Positions 5,825 to 27,170 of a stretch of DNA of 29,235 nt are shown in pieces; position 1 is the stretch's first letter, and every line of letters starts with the position of its first letter. The DNA is taken from positions 1 to 29,235 of the forward strand of contig NW_021836627.1 in NCBI RefSeq assembly GCF_006345805.1, given 5' to 3'. A model generated the notes under the pieces. The model was not told the DNA's origin. It was given only the letters and a program-made list of their open reading frames with translations, and searched no databases. The position numbers and the translations under genes were made by a program. The DNA comes from Octopus sinensis (taxonomy: Eukaryota).

Positions 5825-6090
5825 GGCCATTCGGCTCATGATCGTAAGGTCGTGAGTTCAATTCCCAACGACACGTTGTGTCCTTGAGCAAAACACTTCA
5901 TTTCACGTTGCTCTACTCAGCTGGCGAAAATGAGTAGTACCTGTATTTCAAAGGGCCAGCCTTGTCACACTCTGTGTCGCGCTGAATCTCCCTGAGAACG
6001 ACGTTAAGGGCACATGTGTCTGTGGAGTGCTCAGCCACTTGCACGCTAATTTCACGAGCAAACTGTTCCGTTGATCGTATCAGCTGGCCT
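5825..6090 (+). mobile_element. tRNA-derived SINE (head type D plus tail type B)
   Basis: B-box GAGTTCAATTCCC; TGTGTCCTTGAGCAAAACACTT core shared with 27500-27812; 3' half shared with 14638-14830 and 7500-7670. Confidence 0.85.
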
Positions 6091-9796: not shown

Positions 9797-10252
9797 TACC
9801 TCTGTTAACAGAAATTGAGTTTTGTCTGTAAATTTGACATCTGTTGTTACAAATACACCTTGGCCCAGCCGACATCTGTCGCCAAAACTATATTTTGGCT
9901 CAGTAACTGTGGACGTTTGTTGCAAAGAATATAGTTAGTATTAGCAACAGTAGATATCTGTTGCTAATAATATGGTTTGGGTTAGCAACAGCAGGCATCT
10001 GTAGTTAAGAATGTGGCCCGGACTAGCAACATCGGACAACTGTTTCTAAGAATATAGTTTAAGCCCACAACAGCAGACATCTGTTGCTAAGAATGTAGTA
10101 TGGGTTAGCAACAACTAACATCTGTTGCTAGAAATATAACTTGGCGTAGGAACAACTGACATCCGTTGCTAGTTATACAGTTTGGTCTAACAACGGCTGA
10201 CATTTGTTGCAACAGTTATAGTTTGGCCTAGCAACAGCAGGCATCTATTGCT
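9797..10252. repeat. 41-bp palindromic satellite, block 3 (~11 units)
   Basis: Registers at 10078, 10119, 10160, 10201 and 10242 give an exact 41-bp period. Confidence 0.9.
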
Positions 10253-13559: not shown

Positions 13560-14090
13560 TCATCGTCAATTATGACAACTTGGAACTTTTTTCTTGAGTC
13601 TCTTTCCTTACATGGTTTCGTAAATGTTTCTTCATGCCAGCTTTCGTCTTCATCCCTTTGCTGCACATGTTGTACTTGAAACCAAGTTTCTGGGGTCATT
13701 ACCCCTGCTTCATATCATCATGCCCTCTCGGGTGGCTCTTGGAACCAGCAAGAGAAAGACAAAAGTTTTATGACAAAAGTTTCCAACAGCTTAGTATCTG
13801 CGACAAATCTCCTGATGTTAAACAATCTTCTCGTGGATCTGAATTTGATGTAGGTCCCTTAGTCTTACTTTTAAATGCTACCGTGAATACAGCTGCAAAG
13901 TAACGAGCGAATAACATTTGTGCAAGAATGTTTCCTTGCCTTACTCCACCAAGGAAAGTTGCAGATAAATTACACTTAAGGAACACGCTATTCTTCATGT
14001 TGTCATGCAATGATTGTATTATGTCTGGAAACTTGTAATGACAACCAAACTTCTTCTTTAACACATTTCACAGCTTTGATCTGTTACCCC
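13560..14090 (-). mobile_element. Internally deleted RTE LINE (RT segment joined to C-terminal zinc finger)
   Basis: KFGCHYKFPDIIQSLHDNM...GGVRQGNILAQMLFARYF (RT QG motif), then after a deletion FKYNMCSKGMKTKAGMKKHLRNH (decayed C2H2). Confidence 0.8.
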
Positions 14091-14637: not shown

Positions 14638-15024
14638 AAGGGAAGGAAGCACTCCGTCGGTTACGACGACGAGGGTTCAGGTTGATCCGAATCAACGGAA
14701 CAGTCTGCTCGTTAAATTAACGTGTAAGTGGCTGAGCACTCCACAGACACGTGTACCCTTAACGTAGTTCTCGGGGATATTCAGCGTGACACAGAGAGTG
14801 ACAAGGCTGGCCCTTTGAAATACAGGTACAACAGAAACAGGAAGTAAGAGTGAGAGAAAGTTGTGGTGAAAGAGTACAGCAAGGATCACCACCACCTACC
14901 GGAGCCTCGTGGAGCTTTAGGTGTTTTCGCTCAATAAACACTCACAACGCCCGGCCTGGGAATTGAAACCGCGATCCTATGACCGCGAGTCCGCTGCCCT
15001 AACCACTGGGCCATTGCGCCTCCA
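14638..15024 (-). mobile_element. Full-length tRNA-derived SINE (head B plus tail B)
   Basis: A/B boxes on the minus strand; perfect 14-bp TSD CTGCGTTCAAAATA at 14624-14637 and 15025-15038. Confidence 0.95.
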
Positions 15025-24397: not shown

Positions 24398-24443
24398 CCA
24401 CTACGATCGTTTCTTGTCACTTCTATTGACATTCATCAGGTGG
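24398..24443 (-). ncRNA. Type I hammerhead ribozyme motif
   Basis: Minus strand: ccac CTGATGA a tgtca-atagaag-tgaca a GAAA cgatcg TA gtgg; intact core, stem I 4 bp, stem II 5 bp (A.A at base), palindromic stem III. Confidence 0.8.
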
Positions 24444-24824: not shown

Positions 24825-24948
24825 CAGCTCTTGTTATCCAGTTGCTTATTTTGCTTTTATTCACCTTACTTCGAGCTGTGCAAATAATACCGCACTAACT
24901 TGGTGCTTCAACTTAAATACCTAATTCAACTGAATCTCAATTATTTCT

Positions 24949-24980
<32 letters not shown>

Positions 24981-25009
24981 TGTATGTATGTATGGGATAT
25001 ATGTTCGGT

Positions 25010-25330
25010 ATCGATCTTCTGGCCGTCTTTTCAACCGCGTCGATTAGCTGCCAGTTCAAAAACTTTCCAGTCTCTTATTCGTGACCTCCTTTATACGGAT
25101 GACTGTGACTTAGGCACTCATACAGCGGATGATATGCAAATACTTGTGAATCCTATTTCTGCTTCTTGCATGGTATTTGGACTCAGCCTTAGCCTGGACA
25201 AGACTGCTGCAATGTTCCAGCCTGCACTAGGAAATCCATATGTGGAACCAGCTATCTTGGTTGAAGGAACAATACTGAAAGTGGTAGATATCACTATCTA
25301 CGGTGAATAAGCAACTGGATATCAAGAGAT
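25010..25330 (+). mobile_element. RTE LINE RT fragment (copy 1)
   Basis: RRLAASSK...IRDLLYTDDC...DMQ...FGLSLSLDKTAAMFQPA (YADD-type motif). Confidence 0.9.
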
Positions 25331-25365
25331 GATGCAGTACGACCGTTTCAAGCGGCTCCATTTAA

Positions 25366-26132
25366 TTGAACTAAAGAGAGTCAACTAGTTCGGCTATATG
25401 GGGGTCACAATCTCGTCAGATGCTAAAATTGACAAAGAAGTTGATAAGAGACTGCTCAAAGCAATCAGAGCATTCGGAAAACTGTACAAAAGAGTCTGGA
25501 ATAATAACCATCCGAAGAAAGAGACCAAGATCAATGTATACAGAGCTGTCGTTCTGACCACCCACTTGTAGGCTCCGCCTACGACTTCTTGAGCGATTCT
25601 ATCAGCGCTGCCTCTGCATCGTCCTCAGCATCCACTGGAGTGACTTTGTCTCTAACATCGCGGTCCTAGTGCAGGCGAAGGTCACCAACATCGAAGCAAC
25701 TCTGCTGGAGATGCAGCTTGGTTGGACAGGGCACGTCACCAAGTCAGAGTATCCGCGATTTTCCAAGATCTCGCTGTATAGTAAACTCTCCTCTAGTCAT
25801 CGTGATGGAGGAGCACCAAGGAAGAGGAACAAAGAGTATCAAAAGGAATCCTTTATTGCCTACCACATTGATCACCACCAGTGTTCTGTTTCTTACCGTG
25901 AAGTCTGGCGTCTCACTAATCACCTAGCAACGGCCTCGTTTGAAGACAACCGCAGGACCATTCTTGCAGATATGAAAAAAAGGAGGAAGCACAAGGACTT
26001 TTCCACCAACATGATCAGACTACCTTTCCATGCAACCTCTACGGTCGTTCCTATTTTTCTGAATAAGACTCGTCTGGTATCAGCAAACTTGTAACAGACG
26101 TGGACATCCACTTTCGTAAATCTTCGCTCGCC
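25366..26132 (+). mobile_element. RTE LINE 3' part (copy 2), ending at (GATA)n
   Basis: FGYMGVTISSDAKIDKEVDKRL.KA..AFGKLYKRVW...TKINVYRAVVLT...LERFYQRCL..ILSIHW-like...QLGWTGHV...LYSKL...GAPRKR. Confidence 0.92.
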
Positions 26133-26233
<101 letters not shown>

Positions 26234-26354
26234 AGACAATTATGGCCGGTTGAAAGGATTACCCAGGGTTTCGCATCCATACCATATATTTATTTATATG
26301 TATGTATATGTGTGTGTATTTATATTTATAACGTAACCTTATGTACTTTCTAAA

Positions 26355-26478
26355 ATCTCTGACGAAGCCTAGAGAAACACCCAAGTACCTCAATTTCATC
26401 TACTAATTACTTCAGTCTACTGGAGAGATAAAGGTAGAATGAAGTATTTTTGCCTCTTGGCTGAAACAGCTGTAAGAT
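26355..26478 (+). ncRNA. Type I hammerhead ribozyme motif with a large stem II insertion
   Basis: atct CTGACGA agcc t agag ... ctct t ggct GAAA cagctg TA agat; all core bases canonical; predicted cleavage after GUA at 26474. Confidence 0.85.
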
Positions 26479-26679
26479 ATTTTCTCAATTTCTATTCCTG
26501 TATGTTATATATTTTAATATTTACTGATATCTTTGTATATTATATATGTAAAGCATAATGTTATACATGTATGTATATTGTTGTAATTGTCATTTTAGTA
26601 AATAAATAAATAAATTGACATAATATAATGTCGAAAAGTTGATGAATACCACCTATTGATCCAGTCCATTTTCTTATTG

Positions 26680-26754
<75 letters not shown>
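26680..26754. repeat. (CT)n
   Basis: Visible. Confidence 0.98.
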
Positions 26755-27135: not shown

Positions 27136-27170
27136 GTTTCCGACGAAGAGCTCTACTCGAAACGTTAAGC
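27136..27170 (+). ncRNA. Variant minimal hammerhead-like motif in a PLE terminal-repeat-like island (27094-27278)
   Basis: gttt CCGACGA a gag-ctcta-ctc GAAA cgt TA agc; U4 to C deviation; island flanked by (TA)n. Confidence 0.45.

Follow-up and report, generated by a model that had tools for sequence, protein, structure and literature searches.

The window analysed here (29,235 nt, the entire 29-kb contig, from the 2.72-Gb, microsatellite-rich genome of Octopus sinensis) carries a hammerhead motif that, on sequence comparison, lies in the pLTR of a Hydra-clade Penelope-like retrotransposon (PLE), the window copy being a solo end. The insert between the two halves of its core is, as modelled, one irregular rod extending stem II. 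Taking the evidence together, we think it fairly probable that this is a type I hammerhead of a Hydra-clade pLTR, that its 97-nt insert is a rod closing stem II, and that it would self-cleave only as a double hammerhead, through ACAGCUGU pairing of two copies. Such long-stem motifs are a large overlooked radiation in this genome; the class is interesting, and the window copy is an ordinary member of it. The features are collected in Table 1.

Table 1. Features of the hammerhead motif and of the repeat that carries it (window coordinates)
Feature	Position	Strand	Basis
Solo pLTR (3' end-repeat), 5'-truncated, Hydra-clade Penelope-like element, subfamily A	26285-26679	+	BLAST, shared 3' end, extension alignment
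Stem I, 5' strand, AUCU	26355-26358	+	sequence
Catalytic core C3-A9, CUGACGA	26359-26365	+	sequence
Stem II base pairs, AGCC/GGCU and AGAG/CUCU	26366-69/26459-62 and 26371-74/26454-57	+	sequence
Stem II domain, single irregular rod, 97 nt	26366-26462	+	folding and pair counts, 34 copies in 9 subfamilies
Rod base	26366-74/26454-62	+	
Rod middle helix	26385-92/26440-47	+	
Rod upper helix	26399-403/26434-38	+	
Rod apical hairpin	26410-15/26420-25	+	
Rare G-to-A change	26443	+	G in 27/29 close copies
Catalytic core G12-A15.1, GAAA	26463-26466	+	sequence
Stem III, loopless palindrome ACAGCUGU, predicted dimerisation helix	26466-26473	+	folding, self-duplex energy
GUA triplet, predicted cut 26474/26475	26472-26474	+	position from hammerhead numbering
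Stem I, 3' strand, AGAU	26475-26478	+	sequence
(CT)n microsatellite at element 3' junction	26680-26754	+	

The motif reads CUGANGA...GAAA...N-U-H, with stems I and II flanking the core and the ends in stem I, as in a type I hammerhead, and the A9-to-G12 distance is 97 nt. A sequence check of 26355-26478 found every core and stem letter named in the first-pass annotation in place. The cut position and pair names such as 10.1-11.1 follow standard hammerhead numbering. A strict descriptor (stem I at least 4, stem II at least 4, stem III at least 3, spacer up to 150) had this site as its single match on both strands of the whole window, and none of 200 block-wise dinucleotide shuffles of the window gave any match, which upholds the earlier view that the hammerhead motif is genuine. 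Its description as fully canonical is true of the 11 core letters and fails at two points, since pair 10.1-11.1, usually G-C, is A-U in the window copy and stem III has no loop. Over 34 family rows the inner pairs of stem I were kept in 32/34 and 34/34 and the outer pairs in 16/34 and 23/34; stem I was paired in 77% of cells, with two pairs firm, and the base of stem II in 90%. As a monomer fold the ACAGCUGU stem III had an energy of 0.0 kcal/mol and a probability of 0.00; as an 8-bp intermolecular self-duplex it reached -11.1 kcal/mol. No hammerhead family was among the 8 Rfam covariance-model matches at E<=10 for the motif region, nor among the 150 of 164 whole-window matches listed, which included microsatellite-driven hits to miRNA and snoRNA models. 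With no Rfam match and a published descriptor that stops at 25 nt, the first-pass annotation was right that standard searches would miss the motif. By itself, the 146-nt region folded modestly better than its shuffles (z -1.59, with 12/200 shuffles as good).

That stem II is an enlarged structured domain, as had been proposed, was borne out by folding and by pair counts over 34 copies, which were picked from 104 so as to balance nine subfamilies that are just 50-80% alike in stem II. Single-copy folds gave one irregular hairpin in most copies, and over the 34 copies 80.6% of cells in the rod structure were paired, versus 33-43% when the structure was slid along the alignment. Covariation among copies was found by one measure and not by the other: in a test whose rows are related to one another and whose structure was drawn from the same sequences, 56 cells were changed on both sides versus 32.6 in shuffles (0/500 as high), while pairs with any both-side change numbered 13 versus 14.9 in shuffles (469/500), hence no excess. 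Swaps were seen beside the core at the rod base (A-U/G-U/G-C), in the middle helix (A-U/G-C and C-G/U-A, with U-A/U-G/C-G adjoining) and in the upper helix (A-U/G-C). The apical hairpin was paired in 60% of cells, a low value because its register shifts among copies. Run on a sequence-only alignment, RNAalifold recovered the base alone (8 pairs, -1.5 kcal/mol) and not the rod, and no conserved loop motif was present in the copy alignment (A1).

The strands of the middle helix are GUACCUCA and UGAGGUAU. In the window copy A26443 breaks one of its C-G pairs and shifts the register, the middle-helix pair probabilities being 0.07-0.09 there versus 0.85-0.91 in copy A14. Either 26386-92 or 26408-14 can pair with 26440-46 (83% versus 76% of cells paired); the second register, with 26408-14, had a probability of 0.00 in the six copies computed and 15 both-side changes versus 11.4 in shuffles (65/500). 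Within the rod, 26386-403 is repeated at 26408-20; this points to duplication as its mode of growth and accounts for the alternative register of the first-pass annotation. The inner hairpin proposed there, read literally as 26408-14/26416-20 with 26434-38/26440-46, is in the wrong register: its pair probabilities were 0.00, and the corresponding fold, at -26.2 versus a minimum of -30.1, lies 3.9 kcal/mol too high. It looks good only because of A26443. The segment 26386-92 reads UACCUCA and, if it was the one meant, had been misread as UACUUCA.

The setting of the motif at the end of a Penelope-like element had been missed. BLAST with the window copy gave 862 candidates, of which the 40 scored were 90-100% identical, with homology starting from about 26285. 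The copies share a common 3' end, ...TTCTTATTG at 26679, followed in many by (CT)n or (TA)n; some have a second 3' end about 190 nt further downstream, the 5' truncation point varies among copies, and an opposite-strand piece is present at 5/29 loci. A family pattern gave 187 exact matches, versus 0 for its control, and revealed diverged subfamilies with 96-110-nt spacers. The downstream extension of the window subfamily aligned to an intact sister element over its pLTR/5' UTR, with 134 identities and 42 mismatches (score 152 versus a shuffle maximum of 57); the AT-rich 3' part of the window copy alone, compared with the sister pLTR, scored 72 versus a shuffle maximum of 78, which is not significant. 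The core and palindrome are equally intact in 18/29 close copies, so the window copy is not special. Departures in the close copies amounted to 8/319 (2.5%) in the core, 118/2,813 (4.2%) in stem II and 93/1,885 (4.9%) in the flanks; because core departures are only modestly rarer than the others, decay is near neutral. The window copy is likely a decaying, non-autonomous insertion without a role of its own. Within the window it has no tandem unit or tandem partner, and a Pfam scan of 20 out of its 91 stop-to-stop ORFs recognised no host exon, the best match, at E 0.007, falling below the cut-off.

Several other features of the window were noted. On the minus strand, 24398-24443 holds a second type I hammerhead with an intact core, stem I CCAC/GUGG, a GUA triplet, a 19-nt stem II (5 bp plus a 7-nt loop) and palindromic stem III ACGAUCGU; another locus (L059) has a similar motif whose stem II is 39 nt long. 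On the plus strand, 27136-27170 resembles a minimal hammerhead, with CCGACGA (a U4C change), a 3-bp stem II and GAAACGUU, inside a short repeat-like element. Broken LINE-type reverse transcriptase (RT) fragments, presumably RTE-like, occur at 24888-26094 on the plus strand, just upstream of the hammerhead, and at 13768-14067 on the minus strand, with Pfam giving RVT_1 at E 0.09 only. A pair of 142-nt inverted repeats (5934-6075 and 14691-14832; 92% complementary, 8.6 kb apart) are probably two copies of a dispersed repeat, and 9866-10252 is a 41-bp minisatellite (9.4 copies, 68% matches).

The tie to Penelope-like elements was traced through the RTs beside related copies. In the window subfamily group RT sequence lies within or abuts four copies (L113, L095, L187 and L195): at L113 an inverted copy of the element 3' end is joined straight to an RT fragment, and at L095 the hammerhead adjoins an inverted RT. 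At L098 the 3' part of a family element continues into an ORF start. The L113 RT, used as a query, led to a young family whose frames are open over 960 codons (947 aa when counted from the ATG; 76% identical) and whose flanks carry the identical core type and a homologous 85-nt stem II; this family was thus reached by RT search, the hammerhead pattern playing no part. The sister-family locus L198 is a 5,509-bp pLTR-ORF-pLTR unit in which hammerheads precede the ATG by 608 nt and follow the stop by about 2 kb. Direct repeats flanking an RT-endonuclease ORF, as expected of pLTRs, were found at the sister loci L198 and L192; inverted 5'-truncated copies, variable 5' truncation and alternative 3' ends, likewise expected, were seen among the family copies; in sister families both direct pLTR-ORF-pLTR and inverted arrangements stand beside RT/endonuclease ORFs. 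Fifteen larger regions around RT matches gave a co-oriented long-stem hammerhead in 9, none in 5 and an unrelated motif in 1. An RT match lay within about 2 kb in only 1/60 regions around 71-100-nt pattern matches, so the PLE linkage was shown for eight families and is presumed for the others, most being solo ends.

Pfam returned nothing significant in the element ORFs, leaving the protein unrecognised. That of L146 has RWR, SDKT and YRDD motifs and a C-terminal VYIGAT endonuclease-like region; Hydra-clade features (an RWK-type motif, DKT, a C-terminal endonuclease and microsatellite targets) were thus present, the protein having been compared by eye with published Hydra proteins. In a midpoint-rooted tree of 19 RT pieces, all from this genome, which gives no order of stem II growth, the RTs beside 97-112-nt hammerheads formed one 9-row clade (100/99) that includes 3 rows in which no hammerhead was seen. 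This clade nests with the 85-nt family in a 13-row clade (98/99), and the 55-nt and 10-nt families fall outside. Two RT fragments lying beside family copies were dropped as partners: that of L040 groups with a different Hydra-type family, one with a 10-nt stem II, and that of L136 likewise falls elsewhere, so that both are probably chance neighbours. Assignment to the Naiad clade, with its N-terminal endonuclease, was rejected, the endonuclease here being C-terminal and the shown ends of published Naiad sequences dissimilar, as was identity with a non-LTR retrozyme, the window having no head-to-tail tandem units and the fetched copies being dispersed.

Three further families were encountered. 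A young Hydra-type PLE family (L061, L068, L077) has intact 727-codon frames and a stem II of 2 bp with a GCAA loop. A very abundant young PLE family (L296-L300) has a 55-nt stem II, a ACACGUGU stem III and mostly inverted pairs, and its ORF is Hydra-type with a long low-complexity linker. An older family (L171-L186), with a 54-nt stem II, has the AGC/GCU base and ACAGCUGU stem III in common, and no ORF of at least 250 aa lies within about 1.5 kb of it.

The size of the class was gauged from exact genomic matches to CUGANGA-spacer-GAAACASSUGUH, which count patterns and hence candidate ribozymes. There were 2,561 matches with spacers of 10-40 nt, 7,182 with 41-70 nt, 2,934 with 71-100 nt and 739 with 101-130 nt, versus 23, 15, 10 and 18 for reversed-pattern controls; spacers of 41-130 nt together gave 10,855 versus 43. 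Among the first 100 matches listed in the 41-70-nt class one young 55-nt family, tied to a Hydra-type ORF, dominates. From 60 regions taken in genomic order 62 matches of the 71-100-nt class were sampled, one of them nested; nesting is commoner in the longest class. A stem I of at least 2 and a stem II of at least 3 bp were found in 35/62 of these versus 1/80 metagenome pattern matches, and the median fold z was -2.5 versus -0.1; stem I reached 3 bp in 29/62. The metagenome scan with the same pattern listed 80 of at least 118 loci, and since 1/80 of those listed passed the stem test they look like chance matches, so that no homologue outside this genome was found there. Rod length and sequence vary widely, and stem II looks unrelated in several long-stem families. 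At four loci (L206, L208, L212, L217) the rod has taken in (TA)n expansions (up to 128 nt) and keeps its closing base helix. The 3'-half pattern GAAACASSTGTHAG alone gave 16,859 genomic matches versus 200 controls, which indicates that further copies, decayed or with longer spacers, escape the paired patterns.

The context, a PLE pLTR that likely acts as a dimer, is already known, and the stem II is several-fold longer than in the published PLE tables available to us. Hydra-clade PLE hammerheads (Craig et al. 2021, PMC8557442) are alike in having their type I core within the pLTR, close to the element 3' end, a short near-palindromic stem III (e.g. ACAG-nn-CUGU) and a short stem I, and their elements in having microsatellite-associated ends, an RT with RW[K/R] and DKT, and a C-terminal endonuclease region. 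They differ in the spacer, at most 26 nt in 26 Hydra rows of File S2 of PMC8557442 versus 97 nt here and up to about 110 nt in homologous subfamilies, and in the tandem unit, generally <3 kb versus 5.5 kb here with a longer ORF (947 aa). The minimal dimer-acting PLE hammerheads of Cervera and De la Pena 2014 (PMC4209133) share the palindromic stem III, the mostly solo copies, the inverted pairs and the lack of evident contact between stems I and II through their loops, whereas the RNAmotif descriptor used there allows a stem II of 3-7 bp and a 3-10-nt loop, at most 25 nt between cores, versus 97 nt here, and the G10.1-C11.1 pair described there is here preceded by a covarying R-Y pair (A-U, G-U, G-C). 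Enlarged core spacing has precedents in spike-moss PLE-X1 (about 54 and about 48 nt in two rows) and in the 'half cores' 35-50 nt apart of eight Naiads (PMC8557442). In the portions of that paper available, these cases are isolated, flagged as deviant and about half the length found here, and are accompanied by no covariation analysis or genome-wide radiation. Two published Naiad consensus 3' ends in its supplement have CUGUUGA, a CACC/GGUG-closed hairpin and, about 33 nt later, GAAAC; they resemble a core that has a longer stem and an A6U change. Canonical hammerheads are reported to be lacking in that clade (PMC8557442). Non-LTR retrozymes (PMC7229834; bioRxiv 10.64898/2026.07.22.740005) also carry type I hammerheads related to PLE pLTRs, in head-to-tail tandem arrays, whereas the window copy is a solitary pLTR. 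Viral 'long helix II' hammerheads have 6-8 bp (PMC13725137), and the searches of PMC8557442 limited the core spacer to 7-17 nt. In the largely open-access literature covered, we found no account of PLE hammerheads whose stem II rods span 50-130 nt. The mammalian Clec2 hammerhead of Martick et al. 2008 is reportedly discontinuous, with core halves split by a long insert as here; it is said to be a type III motif, present once, that lies in a 3' UTR and not in a transposon end-repeat, and its insert is said to occupy a different stem.

Under the dimer model, the CUGANGA/stem II/GAAA arm of each copy in a tandem pLTR-ORF-pLTR transcript would cut the GUA of its partner, and the cutting of tandem transcripts would release unit-length element RNA; cleavage would probably be slow, or helped by an element protein. 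The rod likely grew through internal duplication, and its pairing would be retained because the two halves of the core depend on it to meet. By nearest-neighbour energies, which ignore tertiary structure, the active monomer of the window copy is at -25.2 versus a minimum of -30.1 kcal/mol, a gap of about 5 kcal/mol, and in the inactive minimum fold the palindrome is paired to C3-G5. The value for the double hammerhead is -66.3, for two monomers -60.2 and for the best cofold -67.5 kcal/mol; as computed, the dimer is thus favoured over an active monomer. A related 55-nt family has an alternative stem III palindrome, ACACGUGU. Dimer dependence and low activity have been described for PLE hammerheads (PMC4209133), and a review passage covers their dimer behaviour and low rates (PMC6765202). 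Cleavage by the Anolis PLE hammerhead depends on protein; mutants of this hammerhead show unaffected insertion in vitro, and no reads end at the cut site (PMC11167929), results that, as we interpret them, count against a settled processing role. The weakness of stem I, with only 2 pairs well kept, speaks against the dimer-cleavage model.

A chance meeting of CUGANGA and GAAA can be given next to no weight: the single-copy fold z-score of -1.59 is weak, as chance would have it, but 0/200 shuffles matched, the genome has 2,934 matches versus 10 controls in the 71-100-nt class, and the core is conserved across diverged subfamilies. The first-pass annotation had singled out the motif as the best candidate for an active ribozyme here, one that could cut pre-mRNA from a plus-strand intron. 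With 11/11 core letters intact and stems I and II able to form, a monomer-active window copy cutting host pre-mRNA can be imagined, yet it is very improbable, as stem III is loopless, the active monomer lies about 5 kcal/mol above the minimum, 18/29 close copies are equally intact, core departures are near neutral decay and the 20/91 ORFs scanned show no host exon. Nor is there support for this solo pLTR as the best candidate in the window, given its costly monomer fold and the second intact-core hammerhead on the minus strand.

Two other alternatives deserve more weight, each being unlikely all the same. The rod might be a gained functional domain, an RT/endonuclease binding handle or a two-register cleavage switch, beyond a fold-back spacer, and this we hold to be the stronger of the two: compensatory changes between subfamilies preserve the pairing of the middle helix, rod length follows RT lineage (10, 55, 85, 97-112 nt), both 26386-92 and 26408-14 can pair with 26440-46, and the Anolis hammerhead is protein-dependent (PMC11167929), but length and sequence are very variable, several long-stem families look unrelated in stem II, there is no conserved loop motif in the copy alignment, and the second register has a probability of 0.00 and no compensatory excess. 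Slightly less credible is that the core is a hammerhead by descent which has lost cleavage and persists because retrotransposition uses it as a signal, structural or for dimerisation; a stem I of merely 2-3 bp in the youngest long-stem family, and hammerhead mutants without reduced in vitro insertion (PMC11167929), would fit this, whereas the families reached through their RTs keep all core letters and the N-U-H triplet while stem II is about 54% alike.

By itself the window copy is of little weight. If the motifs cleave, ribozyme censuses overlook the majority of this genome's hammerheads with such a stem III, given 10,855 matches with 41-130-nt spacers versus 2,561 with 10-40 nt. It is a tentative and rather doubtful proposal that, in a PLE lineage, stem II has become an accessory domain of 40-130 nt, docking the element's own protein or flipping registers to time cleavage; some 10,000 such ribozymes would then make up a hidden class in this genome, and they may explain PLE clades reported without hammerheads. 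The report of PLE clades without hammerheads rests in part on length-limited searches (PMC8557442) and can now be re-tested. The graded series of 10, 55, 85 and 97-112 nt, placed on a single RT tree and including members that are young and intact, lends itself to asking what PLE hammerheads do and whether new domains can be acquired by a ribozyme.
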